From an uncultured Pseudomonadota bacterium (GTDB taxonomy: Bacteria; Myxococcota_A; Polyangia; Fen-1088): a stretch of 64,000 nt of DNA. The DNA lies in the NCBI GenBank assembly GCA_963847705.1, contig CAWKBC010000017.1, positions 224,001 to 288,000 of the forward strand, given 5' to 3'. The notes under the pieces were generated by a model that saw only the letters and a program-made list of their open reading frames with translations, had not been told where the DNA came from and made no database searches. Both the position numbers and the translations under genes were made by a program. Shown here in pieces: positions 662-13,753 of this stretch (position 1 is its first letter; each line of letters starts with the position of its first letter).

Positions 662-1399
662 TCAGCCGGGCTTGCGCGGAATGCGCGCCCGCAGCGCCCA
701 GACCAGGGTCACCGCCTCGAGGACGATGTTGCCAGACATCTTCGACTGGCCGACCCGGCGTTCGACGAACTTGATGGGAACCTCGACGACGCGGAATCCG
801 CCGCAGATCGCGCGGTAGGTCATCTCGATCTGGAAACCGTAGCCGTGGGCCGAGACGGCCTCGAGATCGAGGGCCCGCAGCGTGTCGGCGCGCCAGGCCT
901 TGAAGCCCGCGGTCAGGTCGTTGATTCCGACGCCCAGGACCAGCCGCGCGTACATCCCGCCGCCGCGGCTGATGATCTTTCGCCCGAGTCCCCAGTTCTC
1001 GGTCCCGCCGCCCGCGGTGTAGCGCGACCCGATCGCCACGTCGGCGCCTTCATCCAGAGCTCGCAAGAGCCGCGGGATATCCTGGGGATCGTGGGAGAAA
1101 TCGGCGTCCATCTGGACGATGCGCTGCCAGCCGCGCGCCGATCCGAGCGCATGCTTGTAGGCCGCCAGATAGGCCGCCCCCAGCCCCTCCTTGGCGCTCC
1201 TGTGCATCACCTCGACCTGGCCATCACCAGCTTGGGCGGCGAGCTGGTCGGCCAGCGCCCCGGTCCCGTCGGGCGAGTTGTCGTCGACGATGAGGACCGT
1301 CGCCGCCGGCACCGCCGCCCGAACCGCCGGGATGATGTCCGCCAGGACCTCCCGCTCGTTGTAGGTCGGGATGACGATCAACGTCGAGGCGTCGCTCAT
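662..1399 (-). CDS. Polyprenol monophosphomannose synthase-like GT2 (Ppm1/DPM1 family)
   Basis: Motifs IPTYNERE, VDDNSPDGT, QMDADFSHDP, GSRY, DLTAGFKAW, FVERRVGQSKM. Confidence 0.9.
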   Translation of the reverse strand: MSDASTLIVIPTYNEREVLADIIPAVRAAVPAATVLIVDDNSPDGTGALADQLAAQAGDGQVEVMHRSAKEGLGAAYLAAYKHALGSARGWQRIVQMDADFSHDPQDIPRLLRALDEGADVAIGSRYTAGGGTENWGLGRKIISRGGGMYARLVLGVGINDLTAGFKAWRADTLRALDLEAVSAHGYGFQIEMTYRAICGGFRVVEVPIKFVERRVGQSKMSGNIVLEAVTLVWALRARIPRKPG

Positions 1400-1412
1400 C
1401 TGGGACGCGTGA

Positions 1413-2419
<1,007 letters not shown>

Positions 2420-2423
<4 letters not shown>

Positions 2424-3373
2424 CTGCTCTCGATCTCCTTTTGGTTGGTTTCGTAGTACTCGACGGTGGCGCGGAGGCCGACGTCGAAAGGGGTCTTCGC
2501 CACGAAGCCGAAGCGCTCGCGGGCGCGGGTGACGTCCAGCTGGCGCCGGGGCTGTCCGTTCGGCTTGCTGGTGTCCCAGACGAAACGCCCCTGGTAGCGG
2601 GCGGCCTGGGCGATCTTGCTCGCCAGGTCACGGATGGTGAGCTCCACGCCGTTGCCGAGGTTCACCGGATCGCTCGAGTCGTAGCGCTCGGCGGCCAGCA
2701 GGATCCCTTCAGCGGCGTCGTCGACGTAGAGGAACTCCCGCGTCGCCGAGCCGTCGCCCCACAAGGTGACCTCCGGCTCGCCGCGGGTGCGCGCGCCGAC
2801 GAACTTCCGGATCATCGCCGGGATGACGTGCGAGGACTCGAGGTCGAAGTTGTCCCGCGGTCCGTAGAGATTGACCGGGAAGAGGACCACGCTGTTCATG
2901 CCGTACTGCTGCCGGTAGCCCTCCGATTGCACCAGCATCATTTTCTTGGCCACCCCATACGGGGCGTTGGTCTCCTCCGGGTAGCCGTTCCAGAGATCGT
3001 CTTCCTTGAACGGCACCGGCGCGAACTTGGGGTAAGCGCAGATGGTGCCGAGCGCGACCAGCTTGGGGACCTTGGCCAGCCGGCACTCCTCGAAGAGCTG
3101 CAGCCCCATCATCGCGTTCTCGAACAGGAAGCGTCCCGGGTTCGAGCGGTTGGCGCCGATCCCCCCGACCTGGGCGGCCAGGTGGATCACCAGGTCGGGC
3201 CGCGCGTCGGCCAGGAGCCGCCGGGCGGCCGCGCGGTCGACGAGATCGTAGTCGGCCGACCGGGGAACGGTCACCGAGGCGCCGGCATCGCGCAGCCGAC
3301 CGACGACGAAGCTGCCGAGAAACCCGGCCCCACCGGTGACGACGACCCGACGGCCGTTCCAGAAGCTGCTCAT
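2420..3373 (-). CDS. fcl: GDP-L-fucose synthase
   Basis: [53 protein letters not shown]; overlaps the gmd start. Confidence 0.95.
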
Positions 3374-5330: not shown

Positions 5331-5347
5331 CCGCCCTCCAAGTCCAG

Positions 5348-5421
<74 letters not shown>

Positions 5422-5728
5422 GTGCAAGTTATTTCGGTGAGTTACATCCGGAGCGTCGTGTGATGCTTTCGAGTCTGCACCCGACCTTCCTGTGCGCGGG
5501 CAGTTCTACCACCTGCCCAGCCGGCCGAGAAAGGTCGACTGACGCCGCGCCGTGGGGACCGACCGCGACGGCGGGAACACGGCGTTCGGTGGAGATAGGG
5601 CGGAGCGGGCCGCATTCAAGTCTCGTTCCTGGCCGGACGATGTACCGAGCGTCAGAATCGTGCCTTCGGCGGAAGGCCACGATAAGATGGCGAGATCCGC
5701 GGAGAACACCGGCGACCGACGAGAAATA

Positions 5729-6316
5729 ATGTCTAGGGGAGACAAACGGTGGATCGTCGCCGGCTCGGTCGTTGTGCTGACGGGACTGGGCTGGTTTGCG
5801 CTGCGGGATCGCGGGACCAGCGGGTCCGAGCGAGCAGACGGCGACGAGCTACACGGATTTGGATCGCGACCGTTCGCGGCGGCCGACGCCAGGCTCCCCC
5901 CACCGCCCGAGACGCCCGAGCTGCTCGCCAAACAGGTCGAGGGGGCGATGGGGCGCTGGCGAACGGCGATCCTGGTGAAGGATGCCCCTTCGGTCGTCGC
6001 GCTCGACCTGACGTTCCGCCAGATGCCGGACCGTTACAGGGCCGCGCTGGCCGCGATCGCCGAGAGCGATGAGAACGAGCGCGTGCGGGCCTTCTCCACC
6101 CGCGTGCTCGGGAAGCTCAAGAACGCGGCGGAGGCGCCGCTCTACCGTCGCCTGCTCACCGACAGGAGCCCCTTCGTCCGCCAGAATGCAGTTTGGGCGC
6201 TGGGGGAGCTCGGCTCTGCCGCGGGCCCGGCCGTCGCCGAGCTGCAGAAGGCCAGCGCCCACGATCCGGCGAACGACGTCCGCGCCGCCGCCCGGGCCGC
6301 CCTCGCCAAGCGCTAG
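5729..6316 (+). CDS. Membrane-anchored HEAT-repeat protein
   Basis: N-terminal TM segment; repeats VRAFSTRVLGKL, VRQNAVWALGEL, VRAAARAAL. Confidence 0.8.
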   Translation: MSRGDKRWIVAGSVVVLTGLGWFALRDRGTSGSERADGDELHGFGSRPFAAADARLPPPPETPELLAKQVEGAMGRWRTAILVKDAPSVVALDLTFRQMPDRYRAALAAIAESDENERVRAFSTRVLGKLKNAAEAPLYRRLLTDRSPFVRQNAVWALGELGSAAGPAVAELQKASAHDPANDVRAAARAALAKR

Positions 6317-6337
6317 CAGGAAGATCGGACCGTCATC

Positions 6338-6496
6338 GTGGCAAACAAAGCGAAACGAAAACCGACAGGACCGGCCAAGAAGGCCTGGCAGAAGCCGCGC
6401 ATCAAGAGTGGCCGCCTGTTCGAGTCGAACAGCCTGGCCTGCGGCAAGAACGGTCCCGGAATGGAATCGTGCGAGCAGTTCCCGAAGATGTCATGA
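6338..6496 (+). CDS. Putative RiPP precursor peptide (52 aa)
   Basis: Manual translation from GTG: MANKAKRKPTGPAKKAWQKPRIKSGRLFESNSLACGKNGPGMESCEQFPKMS*; WxxPxI leader motif; stop overlaps the next ATG (ATGA); upstream of PqqD and rSAM genes. Confidence 0.8.
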   Translation: MANKAKRKPTGPAKKAWQKPRIKSGRLFESNSLACGKNGPGMESCEQFPKMS

Positions 6497-7848
6497 CCAG
6501 ACCGGTCGCGGGCGGTTCCGAGAAGCTGACGCTTTCGCTTTCGCTTTCGCTTTCGATAGGGGGCATCGTCGGCTGCCTGGAGATCTCGGGGGCCCAGGCG
6601 GTCTTTCTCGAGCAGGTTCGGGCGCGCTACGGGGCGTTCATCCTGCCATCCGGCAGCCGCAGCGCCAGCGACTTCAGCCTGCGGCTGGCGCTGGAGCCGA
6701 GCGCCGCGCCCGGCGGCTCGGCTTCGAAGCGCCTGGCCGAGACCGAAGCGCACCCGTTGAAGGTCACGGTCAAGGGGTACGCCATCGCCGCCGAGCGGTG
6801 GGACTTTCGGGCGCGCCTCCAGGGACGTTCGACGCCGCGGTCGGTGCCGGGGCGCGGGATCAGTTATCGCGGCGAAGGTCGCTGTGAGGCCAGCCCGTTC
6901 GCGCTCGACTGCCTGCTGAGGGTGATCTACGCGACCCTGCTGCCGCGCGTGGGGGGGATGCTCATCCACGGCTGCGGCCTGCGGCACGCGGCGATCGGGG
7001 TGATCTTCCCGGGTGTGAGCGGCGCGGGGAAGAGCACTCTCGCGCGCAAGGCGCCGGACGCGGACGACGTGCTGTCAGACGAGCTGGTGGTGGTTCGCCG
7101 GCTGGACGATGGCTGGCGCGTGTACGGGACGCCGTTCTGGGGCGACTTCGCCCGCGGCGGCATCTCGATGCGCAGCTGGCCGCTGCGAACGGTGGCGTTC
7201 CTCAACCAGGCGCGCGAGGTGGCGATGACGCCGATCACCTCCTCGGATGCGACGCTGCGCCTGCTCGGCTGCTTCCTGGCCTTCACCACCGATCGCGCGT
7301 CGGTCGAGCGGAGCCTGGCCGTGGCCGTCCAGCTCTGCGCCGAGGTTCGCTCGGTCGAGGCGTCGCTGACCCGCGCGGCGCCCACGGCGATCGTGTTCCG
7401 CAAGCTCGCCCCGCACCTCGGGCCCGAGGTGACGCGCGCGGTGCCGCCTGCGAACGCGCGCGAGCTCATCTCCGAGTTCCGCGCGCTGCTGCGCAAGCAG
7501 CGGTCGTACTCCTTCAGGCCCAAAGGGACGGCGGGCGCCTGGCTCAAGAACGGCGAATCGCTCGCGGTCCAGACGCCCGGTCTCGGCGCGCCGCTCGGGC
7601 CGGGGGACGTCGTGCTGTCCTGGGTGCCCGGACCGACGCCCGACGAGGATGCCCTGGCCTGCCGCCGACTCTCGGCGGCGGGCGCGCGCGAGGCCGGGCA
7701 GGCCTGGATCGGGGGCGAGCTACTCGGCCGCGTCACCCTCGTCTCGCGCGACGGCAAGACCCTGCCGCTTCCGGGACGTGTCGCCGATCTGGCCCGCAGC
7801 TTCGGGCCGCTGGTCGCGATTCCCATGCTGAGGATGGCCGGACGATGA
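6493..7848 (+). CDS. HprK-related P-loop protein (ScmC-like) fused to a degenerate S24/S26 peptidase-like domain
   Basis: LIHGCG, GVSGAGKST Walker A, LSDE, GTPFWG; C-terminal SFRPKGT...GDVV...LLGRVTLVSRDG. Confidence 0.7.
   Translation: MTRPVAGGSEKLTLSLSLSLSIGGIVGCLEISGAQAVFLEQVRARYGAFILPSGSRSASDFSLRLALEPSAAPGGSASKRLAETEAHPLKVTVKGYAIAAERWDFRARLQGRSTPRSVPGRGISYRGEGRCEASPFALDCLLRVIYATLLPRVGGMLIHGCGLRHAAIGVIFPGVSGAGKSTLARKAPDADDVLSDELVVVRRLDDGWRVYGTPFWGDFARGGISMRSWPLRTVAFLNQAREVAMTPITSSDATLRLLGCFLAFTTDRASVERSLAVAVQLCAEVRSVEASLTRAAPTAIVFRKLAPHLGPEVTRAVPPANARELISEFRALLRKQRSYSFRPKGTAGAWLKNGESLAVQTPGLGAPLGPGDVVLSWVPGPTPDEDALACRRLSAAGAREAGQAWIGGELLGRVTLVSRDGKTLPLPGRVADLARSFGPLVAIPMLRMAGR
6531..6554 (+). 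repeat. (GCTTTC)x4 in-frame tandem repeat
   Basis: gctttcgctttcgctttcgctttc, encoding an LS repeat. Confidence 0.85.
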
Positions 7849-8117
7849 CCTACAAGCGCGATCCCGGCCTCCCGTTCCAGAAGCTGGAGGAGGAGACCAT
7901 CGTGGTCGACCCGCGCACCCGCGAGGTCCACCTGCTGAACGACACCGCGGCGCGCGTCTGGGAGCTCCTGGCGTCGTCCTCGACGCTCGACGAGCTGACG
8001 GAGACGCTGGCCGAGGAGTACGACGCGCCTGCGGAGGCGGTGCGCGCGGGCGTCGAGGAGCTGCTGGCCGGGTTGCGCGACAAGGGCCTCCTGGTCGACG
8101 TGGCTGAGGCGGCCTGA
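7845..8117 (+). CDS. PqqD family peptide chaperone (RiPP recognition element)
   Basis: 90 aa: EETIVVDPRTREVHLLNDTAARVWELL...LAEEYDA...LRDKGLL. Confidence 0.9.
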   Translation: MTYKRDPGLPFQKLEEETIVVDPRTREVHLLNDTAARVWELLASSSTLDELTETLAEEYDAPAEAVRAGVEELLAGLRDKGLLVDVAEAA

Positions 8118-8119
8118 GC

Positions 8120-9406
8120 GTGGACTCCGCGCCGCGCTGCCAGGACGAGGCGATCCTGACCCCGTCGGGCGAGCACGCGGTGGTGAGCCAGCTGCAGAGC
8201 ATGGCCTACCAGCGGATGATCCCGCTCAACGTCTCGCTCGAGCTGACGCTCAAGTGCAACATCCGGTGCCTCCACTGCTACAACTTCGACCGCGACACCG
8301 CCGGCCCTGCCTGCGGCCCGCGCGACGCGGCGTCGCCGGCCGGGGCGCTGTCTCCGGAGCTGTCTCCGGAGCTGTCTCCGGAGCTGTCCTTGGAGGAGAT
8401 CTTCCGGGTGATGGGCGAGCTGCGCGCCGCGGGGACGCTGTTCCTCTCGCTCACCGGTGGCGAGGTCCTGAGCTCGCCGCATCTCTTCCCGGTGCTCGAC
8501 CGCGCGCGCGAGCTCAACCTGGCGGTCCAGATGCTGAGCAACGGGACGCTGCTCCGCCCCGGCGTGGCGGCGCGCCTGGCGGGCTATCGCAACCTCCTCG
8601 GCGTCAGCATCAGCGTCTACGGCGCGACGCCGGAGGTGCACGACGCCATCACGCAGATCCGCGGCTCCTGGCGGCGGACGCTCGACGGCGCCGAGCGGCT
8701 GCGCGCCCAGGGGGTGGCCGTGCGCCTCAAGCTGATCGTGATGCGCCCGAACGTGCATGAGGTGGGCGCGATGCGGGCGCTCTGCGACGCCCGCGGGTTC
8801 CCCTACCTGCTCGATCTCACGGTCACGGCGCGCCACGACGGCACCAAAGGGAGCCTGGCCATGCGGATCACCGAGGCCGAGCTGGCCGCGCTCTACCAGG
8901 GCCCGCTCCACGATCTCATTCCCAACGGCCGTCGCGCCGTCGACGAGGAGGCGTTCCCCTGCAACTGCGCGCGCGGAAACGCCGCCATCTCGGCGCGCGG
9001 CGACGTGTTTCCTTGCGTGTCGGTCCCCTGGAGGGCCGGCAACGTGCGCCAGCGGCCGTTCGGGGAGATCTGGCGGAGCTCGCCGGTGTTCGAACGAATC
9101 CGCGGGCTGAAGATCGCCGACTACCCGGCCTGTGCCCCCTGCCCCGACAAGTCCTTCTGCTCGCGGGATCGCGGCGCCGCCTACAACGCCTCGGGGAGCT
9201 ACACCGGGATCGACCCATTCGTCTGCGCCGCCGCCGGCGTCGCGCGGGCCGTCGCGGAGACGCGCCCCGGCGAGGCCGCGCGCCCCGGCGAGGCCGCGCG
9301 CCCCGGCGTGGCCGCGCGCCCCGGCGAGGCCGCGCGCCCCGGCGTGGACAACCGACCGCCGGCCGCGCCCGACGTCCGGCTGCCGCTGGCGGTCGCCGCC
9401 CGCTGA
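8120..9406 (+). CDS. Radical SAM/SPASM-domain peptide maturase
   Basis: ELTLKCNIRCLHCY (CxxxCxxC), LTGGE, SNGT; SPASM-like CNCARG...GDVFPC...GNV...CAPCPDKSFC...C. Confidence 0.92.
   Translation: MDSAPRCQDEAILTPSGEHAVVSQLQSMAYQRMIPLNVSLELTLKCNIRCLHCYNFDRDTAGPACGPRDAASPAGALSPELSPELSPELSLEEIFRVMGELRAAGTLFLSLTGGEVLSSPHLFPVLDRARELNLAVQMLSNGTLLRPGVAARLAGYRNLLGVSISVYGATPEVHDAITQIRGSWRRTLDGAERLRAQGVAVRLKLIVMRPNVHEVGAMRALCDARGFPYLLDLTVTARHDGTKGSLAMRITEAELAALYQGPLHDLIPNGRRAVDEEAFPCNCARGNAAISARGDVFPCVSVPWRAGNVRQRPFGEIWRSSPVFERIRGLKIADYPACAPCPDKSFCSRDRGAAYNASGSYTGIDPFVCAAAGVARAVAETRPGEAARPGEAARPGVAARPGEAARPGVDNRPPAAPDVRLPLAVAAR
8347..8388 (+). repeat. 12-bp tandem repeat (GCTGTCTCCGGA)x3.5 inside the rSAM gene
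   Basis: Encodes LSPE-LSPE-LSPE-LS. Confidence 0.85.
9261..9346 (+). repeat. 18-bp tandem repeat (CGCGCCCCGGCGWGGCCG)x~4.8 at the 3' end of the rSAM gene
   Basis: Encodes RPG(E/V)AA repeats. Confidence 0.85.
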
Positions 9407-9457
9407 GCGCTCTTTCTTGTCGACGGACCGTCGTCAGATTTATGGTCGGTGACCGCC

Positions 9458-9961
9458 ATGCCGCCGCTCGTCCCCGTCGTGGAGGTCAAACAGACGATGG
9501 CGGGGGGCGAGAAGCGCTTCGACTGCCTGCGCCTCGCCGGCGGCGCCGGGCACGCCGTTCTGCTCTGGATCACGCCGGCGCCGATGCGCGTTCATGGCGT
9601 CGAGCTGCCGGCGGGGACCATCAGCTTCGGGCACTTCTGGACCAATCGGTTCTACAACGTCTACCACTGGCTCGACGCCGACCGCCGGACGCTGGGGTTC
9701 TATTTCAACCTGGCCGACCGAACGCAAATCGGCGAGGCCGAGCTCGTGTGGCGCGATCTGGTGGTGGATGTGCTGGCGACCCCGGCCGGCCGGCTGGAGG
9801 TCCTCGACGAGGATGAGCTGCCCGTCCTCGTCGACCCGGAGGTGGCGGCCCACATCGCCGCCGGCAAAGCGGCGATTCTGGGCGCGCCGACTCTGCTGAT
9901 GGCGGAGATCGAGACCGCCTCCCGGGCGCTGTTCCCGCTGGCCTTTCCAGCGTCCGGTTAA
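9458..9961 (+). CDS. DUF402 domain protein
   Basis: RFYNVYHW, GFYFNLA, WRDLVVDVL, LEVLDEDEL motifs. Confidence 0.75.
   Translation: MPPLVPVVEVKQTMAGGEKRFDCLRLAGGAGHAVLLWITPAPMRVHGVELPAGTISFGHFWTNRFYNVYHWLDADRRTLGFYFNLADRTQIGEAELVWRDLVVDVLATPAGRLEVLDEDELPVLVDPEVAAHIAAGKAAILGAPTLLMAEIETASRALFPLAFPASG

Positions 9962-13677: not shown

Positions 13678-13753
<76 letters not shown>

Follow-up and report, generated by a model that had tools for sequence, protein, structure and literature searches.

The closest described relatives of the locus reported here are the clusters for linear polyphosphorylated peptides (LPPs; lppA-K-B-S-D-N; Popov et al. 2026), which encode a signal peptidase I (SpI), a recognition element (RRE) for peptides that are made by the ribosome and modified after translation (RiPPs), an HprK kinase, a nucleoside triphosphate (NTP) transferase and a transporter. 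As given in the main text of that paper, the LPP leader follows the pattern YxxPxVLxHQxIxFETxxS, LppS cuts it after FET in a manner requiring S29/H68/D93 and the RRE, the N-terminal helix of LppS is modelled on the RRE with support from mutagenesis, and LppK phosphorylates core Ser3; a radical S-adenosylmethionine (rSAM) enzyme goes unmentioned there (PMC13381572). The lasso-peptide literature describes kinases that phosphorylate a C-terminal Ser, to the phosphate of which PsmN adds hexose (PMC6993621, PMC8498205), and the catalytic motif H-G-G-G-K-S-D-D of the lasso kinase BsfK (PMC10368454). Here we analyse a compact rSAM/SPASM RiPP cassette in a stretch of 64,000 nt (contig CAWKBC010000017.1, forward strand 224,001–288,000; hereafter the window, to whose positions coordinates refer unless labelled). 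We read it, as an evenly balanced proposition, as a radical-SAM branch of an LPP-type peptide pathway with an unlinked leader protease. In what follows, G, L, C and g label genomes, fetched loci, contigs and genera, G000 being the window's own genome.

An earlier note, made from the sequence alone, had claimed four open reading frames (ORFs) at this locus, and all were re-found at 6338–6496 (52 aa, GTG start), 6493–7848 (451 aa from ATG), 7845–8117 (90 aa) and 8120–9406 (428 aa), together with the ATGA overlaps at 6493–6496 and 7845–7848 and a 2-nt gap at 8118–8119. The profile searches that it had proposed returned the Pfam families PqqD (7.8e-19), Radical_SAM (1.3e-18) and SPASM (5.5e-11), and its view of the locus as a RiPP cluster with a genuine precursor, an RRE, an rSAM/SPASM enzyme and an intact kinase motif is supported by conservation and profile matches. 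Relatives do keep a small ORF and a PqqD gene next to the rSAM gene, and the window rSAM reaches no NCBIfam cut-off, including those of characterized non-peptide families. The parts of the cassette are as follows.

6338..6496, + strand: precursor of 52 aa, with the W17-x-x-P20 RRE motif and F28-E29-S30 in the leader and a predicted core N31–S52 containing C35, C45 and the terminal S52
6428..6493, + strand: core of 22 residues, predicted on the assumption of a cut after S30 like that after FET in LPP (PMC13381572); unmodified monoisotopic mass 2313.985
6493..7440, + strand: HprK/PEPCK-fold peptide kinase domain, residues 1–316, with H159, G174-G177-G179-K180-S181 and D196-E197 (structure model and motif)
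7441..7848, + strand: S26 (archaeal-type signal peptidase I) pseudo-peptidase domain, residues 317–451, fused to the kinase (hhalign; TIGR02228 in relatives)
7845..8117, + strand: discrete RRE of the PqqD family (PF05402 7.8e-19)
8120..9406, + strand: rSAM/SPASM maturase with C46/C50/C53, SPASM Cys 281, 283, 299, 338, 341, 347 and 369, and D350

In the proposed pathway, the RRE would bind the precursor via its W-x-x-P leader, the SPASM enzyme would make a Cys thioether cross-link, the kinase would phosphorylate the C-terminal Ser and an unlinked stand-alone signal-peptidase-like protease would remove the leader, the last step being proposed on the ground that catalytic residues are missing from the fused protease domain. 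Judging from sequence and from analogy with described systems, the product is likely a 22-residue thioether-linked peptide with a phosphorylated C-terminal Ser.

The gene set is conserved in soil myxobacteria-related bacteria. A search with the rSAM retrieved 71 loci, of which 31 carry the peptide, which ends in Ser in all 31, and the closer precursor-bearing loci are metagenome-assembled genomes of Polyangia/Myxococcota. The peptide profile matches 45 of the 89 genomes of the window's family, with the fusion domain adjacent in every one of the 45, and gives five weak matches only in 400 genomes drawn from the phylum. Within the family, occurrence of the cassette tracks genera (g1 23/25, g11 0/13, g12 0/11). 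Speaking against the proposed pathway is a Planctomycetota locus (L024:7082–8179), whose rSAM is 58% identical to that of the window and in whose 16 kb no precursor, RRE or kinase was found.

The protein search returned 576 precursor homologues, and conservation was counted on the best 120 of these. W17, G25, L27, F28, E29, N31, S32, L33, C35 and K37 are invariant in this set, while 119 of the 120 have the leader W-x-x-P plus FE[S/A/T], 119 a second Cys and 119 a C-terminal Ser, against a background Ser frequency of 8%. The terminal Ser lies seven residues past the second Cys in 106/119 and stays fixed while its neighbouring residues vary; the Cys35–Cys45 spacing ranges from 7 to 13. The precursor matches no Pfam or NCBIfam model and is under purifying selection, with a pooled pairwise ratio of non-synonymous to synonymous substitutions (dN/dS) of ~0.11 for 15 close loci, an approximate value in such GC-rich DNA; for its loop and tail the ratio is 0.09 in the window's clade and 0.6–1.2 in two other clades. 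The RRE scores best in NCBIfam against lasso_PqqD_Strm (41.2 vs a cut-off of 70) and passes PqqD_rel_X (39 vs 35), and it very probably binds the W-x-x-P leader of the precursor. By analogy with LPP, the leader would probably be cut after F-E-S, releasing N31–S52; a cut after S-L-A under the signal-peptide rule (core mass 1928.789) is a possible alternative, set aside for F-E-S after the LPP comparison.

The second gene had been described in the earlier note as an HprK-like fusion, which holds for its kinase half, an intact peptide kinase; the other half had gone unrecognized as an archaeal-type S26 signal peptidase domain. Residues 317–451 match three free S26 proteins from related clusters (hhalign 93.9%; a further hhalign gave 95.2%), and intact relatives match TIGR02228 at 1.6e-4 to 1e-7. 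The window copy itself matches nothing in TIGR02228, and all of Ser-His-Asp is missing from it, the catalytic Ser being lost, the His replaced by R391 and the KGD loop deleted. Of 27 fold matches of the dead domain, 11 are proteins that we take to belong to S24/S26; the weakness of these matches (Z 2.0–2.9) weighs against this assignment. Run against PDB sequences, the S26-like profile gave a single chance match (E 0.81).

The state of this domain was then compared across relatives. Of 63 full-length fusions, 6 identical ones were dropped to leave 57, in which the Ser-His-KGD set is intact in 16 and broken in 41, including the window. Kinase-domain trees, that of the 57 fusions being a quick one, require three to four changes for the dead state, two of them forced by strong branches. 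A single origin of the dead state was rejected by the approximately unbiased (AU) test (p 0.008). The S26 triad was lost at least twice, on our reading two to three times, and the domain was kept under selection: dN/dS is 0.31 for the dead domain and 0.09 for its N-terminal helix, the R-E-x-I-S-E motif of which is invariant in 34/34 aligned rows. The dead domain may have been retained to dock the kinase and so keep it on the RRE–precursor complex, a role that we advance tentatively, at slightly less than even chances. Complex prediction for the dead S26 domain, RRE and precursor scored 0.00 in a run whose controls did not fold.

The genome of the window also encodes a stand-alone S26 protein with its catalytic residues.

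G000:C30:338969-339481, - strand: stand-alone S26 gene, with invariant S26, H65 and D84

Fusion status was scored in 44 cassette genomes (26 dead, 17 intact and 1 truncated at a contig end, with its Ser and His in place); G069, on the same contig as L032, was added as dead. Orthologues of this orphan peptidase were recognized by a 12-row profile at E<=9e-39, with a clear score gap to the next S26 matches at E>=3e-15. They occur in 25 of the 27 genomes with a dead fusion, in 0 of the 18 with a live fusion and in 2 of the 44 cassette-free genomes. Within g1 and g8 taken together, the orphan is absent from all three live-fusion genomes and present in 25/27 dead ones, and G069, which has a dead fusion and the orphan, clusters at a support of 92 with G060 and G064, which have live fusions and lack the orphan. 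We regard this mirror-image distribution as suggestive because it comprises only two, at most three, independent pairs (sign test p 0.5). Several further points count against linking the two: the G069 call comes from a frameshifted assembly, two dead-fusion genomes, G057 and G067 (completeness 79% and 74%), show no orphan, the orphan occurs in no genera other than g1 and g8, and the three live g1 genomes without it are 68–82% complete and also lack its porin neighbour. The same three genomes do carry another unlinked gene of the genus, NTP_transf_5, and the porin gene beside the orphan, which served as control, has a scattered distribution among live-fusion, dead-fusion and cassette-free genomes.

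On balance, the orphan probably acts in trans on the leader. The competing account, which we find distinctly less likely, is that the orphan has its own substrate and tracks dead fusions through shared g1/g8 ancestry, with the leader left on or trimmed by housekeeping proteases. The few independent contrasts, the restriction to two genera and the loss of the porin neighbour in G060, G064 and G071 all fit such an account, as does the position of the orphan, which never adjoins the cassette and sits among unrelated genes (a porin and others). Shared ancestry is nevertheless harder to reconcile with the contrast between live and dead fusions inside g1 and g8, and with the presence of the orphan in G069 despite its pairing with live sisters. 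Furthermore, in the 14 orphan loci that were read we noticed no adjacent RRE, precursor or rSAM, and the dead-fusion clades keep the F-E-S site in their precursors.

The chemistry of the maturase was judged mainly from its cysteines. The Cys usual after C347 is replaced, by D350 in the window, in all 26 readable rows of 29, and it is possible that the seven SPASM Cys leave an open site at the auxiliary cluster, as described for CteB and SkfB (PMC8326336). The open-site reading is uncertain because Cys288, an eighth Cys present in 16/29 rSAM rows, or D350 could fill it, and D350 could be a cluster ligand as Asp is in PqqE; both residues weigh against an open site. Because the core has two invariant Cys and no conserved aromatic residue, a thioether is the most likely chemistry, and the rSAM would, with better than even prospects, form it on Cys at a three-Cys auxiliary cluster. 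Among solved structures, PqqE and SkfB come nearest, a 12-row profile giving E values of 1e-24 and 1e-22.

It is also conceivable, if considerably less so, that no thioether is made and that the rSAM instead forms a C-C link, epimerizes a residue or oxidatively decarboxylates the C-terminal (phospho)serine, with C35 and C45 forming a disulfide or adding to a dehydro residue. The top profile matches are indeed decarboxylases and C-C enzymes (AhbD, NirJ, MftC and PqqE), and the distance from Cys45 to the terminal Ser is nearly fixed while that between the two Cys varies. These matches all lie far under cut-off, however, and reflect generic SPASM likeness; the seven SPASM Cys suit thioether synthases, and a C-C link would find no conserved aromatic in the core.

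The kinase domain appears to be catalytically intact. The structure model of the fusion (mean confidence, pLDDT, 81.6) has a PEPCK/HprK fold over residues 9–315, with Z 14.0 against PEPCK (root-mean-square deviation 4.9, 252 aligned residues) and 7.9–8.6 against HprK, and its H159, G174, G177, G179, K180, S181, D196 and E197 match the BsfK catalytic motif. It matches ScmC and HprK_rel_A/B, all under cut-off. Walker A is intact in 56 of the 57 distinct fusions, and dN/dS is 0.08 for residues 150–310. A live kinase is kept in every cassette genome. In G081 (95% complete), one locus comprises the rSAM, a fusion of dead kinase and live peptidase, and the peptide, while a second carries a live kinase to which no S26 domain is joined, together with an RRE and the HEAT gene described below; this split is an independent case that fits the rule that kinase and peptidase activities are both kept. 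G015 has a second cassette without a kinase, the peptide of which still ends in Ser.

By analogy with the lasso kinases, we consider S52, the C-terminal Ser, the somewhat favoured target of the kinase. Two findings tell against it: S32 is invariant too (120/120), at a place close to where the LPP and Bsf kinases act near the core start, and three of four readable distant precursors lack the terminal Ser. The kinase might thus act on S32, core position 2, instead of or besides the terminal Ser, as LppK and BsfK do on core Ser3, and S32 is also retained in two distant precursors; we hold this to be rather unlikely. Counted from the F-E-x cut, S32 is residue +2 rather than +3, and position 2 was never a site of BsfK modification (PMC10368454). 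Moreover, S32 is replaced by Ala in L031 and L033, both of which still end in Ser, and the terminal Ser is fixed though its adjoining residues vary.

The earlier note had counted four genes in the unit. All four stand, but a fifth member directly upstream and the probable trans-acting partners had been overlooked.

5729..6316, + strand: membrane-anchored HEAT-repeat protein, ~195 aa from the ATG at 5729 (longest ORF from 5552; HEAT_2 1.1e-14)
G000:C23:27003-28055 (L148): unlinked NTP_transf_5 gene in a polysaccharide locus

The HEAT gene is found in 43/45 cassette genomes (E<=1e-20) and in 0/44 others; of the two exceptions, G004 matches at 1e-19, just under the threshold, and the G060 contig begins at the precursor. 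It stays upstream of the precursor in unrelated contexts (L009, L037, L098, L108 and L113), and it is the fifth member of the unit. The protein consists of an N-terminal hydrophobic segment, present in most relatives, a linker and a HEAT domain, and it may serve as a periplasmic binding or immunity partner; an Atlas search with it gave generic HEAT clusters only. The NTP_transf_5 orthologue occurs in 28/45 cassette genomes and 3/44 others, all three in cassette-bearing genera, which its distribution tracks; this association with the cassette is a weaker one and possibly ancestral. In L228:1-8680 and L230:2-6413, from distant members of the phylum, a giant surface protein is followed by a related precursor and kinase alone; that protein in L228 has 2491 aa with FG-GAP and Ig-like domains. 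Very large secreted proteins are also encoded near the L038, L113, L122 and L024 loci.

A further reading, which we think improbable, makes the peptide a part of the envelope or a tag on it rather than a diffusible metabolite: once phosphorylated, it would receive sugar from the unlinked NTP_transf_5 enzyme and be retained through the membrane-anchored HEAT protein. This would agree with a unit that has no transporter, with the co-inheritance of the HEAT anchor, with the excess of NTP_transf_5 in cassette genomes, with distant loci that follow giant surface proteins, with the hexosylation of phosphoserine by PsmN (PMC6993621, PMC8498205) and with the location of LPP clusters in capsule loci (PMC13381572). 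Against it, the genus-level co-occurrence of NTP_transf_5 may be ancestry, and 17/45 cassette genomes showed no orthologue.

Joined together, these elements give a three-locus pathway in which the cassette would make a thioether-cyclized peptide with a C-terminal phosphoserine, the orphan would cut the leader in trans, the dead copy would dock the kinase on the RRE, the nucleotidyltransferase of the polysaccharide locus would add a sugar to the phosphate and the product would be displayed on the membrane-anchored HEAT protein. This full scheme is speculative and, taken as a whole, unlikely; if true, the product would form a new class, and a leader peptidase of RiPP biosynthesis would have been turned repeatedly and convergently into an adaptor without enzyme activity. 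What is new is that the peptidase became a pseudo-enzyme more than once and that a replacement for it probably acts in trans, and rSAM cross-linking together with LPP/lasso-type phosphorylation and a signal-peptidase-like leader protease is a combination not found in the searched literature. If the dead-fusion/orphan pattern holds, a RiPP cluster can leave the removal of its leader to an unlinked gene while the dead protease is retained as a scaffold; the mature product would then escape genome mining restricted to clusters, and likewise heterologous expression of nothing but the cluster. The short precursor, with its predicted masses, among them 5704.915 for the unmodified chain including Met, makes the pathway testable in Escherichia coli.

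As for the surroundings of the cassette, DUF402 and the downstream housekeeping genes were considered as unit members and rejected because they drop out or move in other genomic contexts, their conservation being one of synteny only. No transporter was found within the unit, no NTP transferase or MsbA-like transporter among the cluster neighbours, no sigma-70 promoter or plus-strand terminator at the unit, and no RNA holder is listed across window positions 5500–9500. A tRNA-Arg(CCT) gene lies just upstream of the unit (5347–5421, - strand) and a tRNA-Pro gene downstream (13678–13753, - strand). Further upstream, at 662–3373, is a group of genes syntenic in many relatives, presumably a glycosyltransferase and two sugar-nucleotide epimerase/dehydratase-like genes, as named from reading their translations by eye. 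Short in-frame tandem repeats with units of 6, 12 and 18 bp were found at 6530–6555, 8347–8388 and 9261–9344, in variable parts of the kinase and the rSAM.

Other clusters of the same broad family were also observed. In two Bdellovibrionota loci (L034:7320-12383 and L038:5204-10496), the RRE, a free S26, the rSAM, the precursor, the kinase, a probable nucleotidyltransferase and an ABC transporter are in one cluster, which amounts to a full LPP-like set. The genome of the window has a second such cluster (G000:C32:268631-274765, equal to L072:6632-12766, - strand), which comprises a Peptidase_C25 surface protein, an RRE, an rSAM, a 60-aa precursor with three Cys that ends in Ser, a free kinase and a free intact S26. 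An RRE–kinase fusion of 328 aa is encoded on G000:C41 (L073:3283-7319) downstream of a PRMT-like methyltransferase, with no precursor found in this locus; methyltransferases of similar type are also encoded close to related kinases in L122 and L229.

Finally, we compared the cassette with known systems. SynChlorMet (TIGR04248-04251), to which the earlier note had likened it, did not hold up as the comparison (score/cut-off: ScmC 42.9/125, ScmD 22.5/100, ScmE 83.6/400, ScmF 54.7/400). SynChlorMet and HPr-rel-A (TIGR04352/04353) do share the trio of HprK-related protein, PqqD and rSAM, and the window RRE passes TIGR04353 (39 vs 35) while the HprK_rel_A cut-off is missed, but SynChlorMet has two rSAMs where the window has one; the literature search on SynChlorMet returned nothing. 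In agreement with that note, the locus fits no known cofactor pathway (PqqE 72.2/381, MftC 94.3/265; no PQQ or mycofactocin operon genes among the neighbours). The description of the cluster as uncharacterized stands for the cassette itself and for its broad family (rSAM, RRE, HprK kinase and S26), no account of which was found in a literature search with subscription journals outside its coverage, but the cassette is less unprecedented than that term implied because LPP, a characterized analogue, pairs an RRE and an HprK kinase with a signal peptidase of the archaeal type.

With sactipeptide and ranthipeptide systems (SkfB, CteB, NxxcB), the cassette shares an RRE with rSAM/SPASM, a Cys-containing precursor and a possible three-Cys auxiliary cluster, but it is distant in sequence (StsB model 82.6 vs a cut-off of 625; AlbA 60.1 vs 850) and has a discrete RRE, a kinase and an S26 domain. 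With the phospho-lasso systems (paeninodin, pseudomycoidin, Bsf), it shares an HPr-kinase homologue with H-G-G-G-K-S-D-D/E and a WxxP leader, and with the paeninodin type also the conserved C-terminal Ser; in contrast to them, it has an rSAM, and no macrolactam cyclase or B2 cysteine peptidase is found among the cluster genes and conserved neighbours.

The closest known system is LPP, not SynChlorMet. Several defining features separate the two: the window unit adds an rSAM/SPASM enzyme, two invariant Cys and a HEAT anchor; it has kinase and peptidase joined in one protein, with the latter dead, whereas an intact orphan S26 lies elsewhere in the genome and the fused domain is intact in 16/57 relatives; its cluster lacks a transporter and NTP transferase, with one NTP_transf_5 on another contig; its leader has W for Y, is two residues shorter and is followed by Leu rather than Ser at core +3; and its host belongs to Polyangia, while LPP hosts are Bacillota. 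The LPP product is linear, whereas the rSAM suggests a cross-link here. What the cassette has in common with LPP is an RRE of the discrete kind, a kinase resembling HprK, a signal peptidase domain of archaeal type, a [Y/W]xxP...FE[ST] leader and the lack of a lasso cyclase. In sum, although LPP membership fails on these features, the leader-handling logic read from its sequence is common to LPP.

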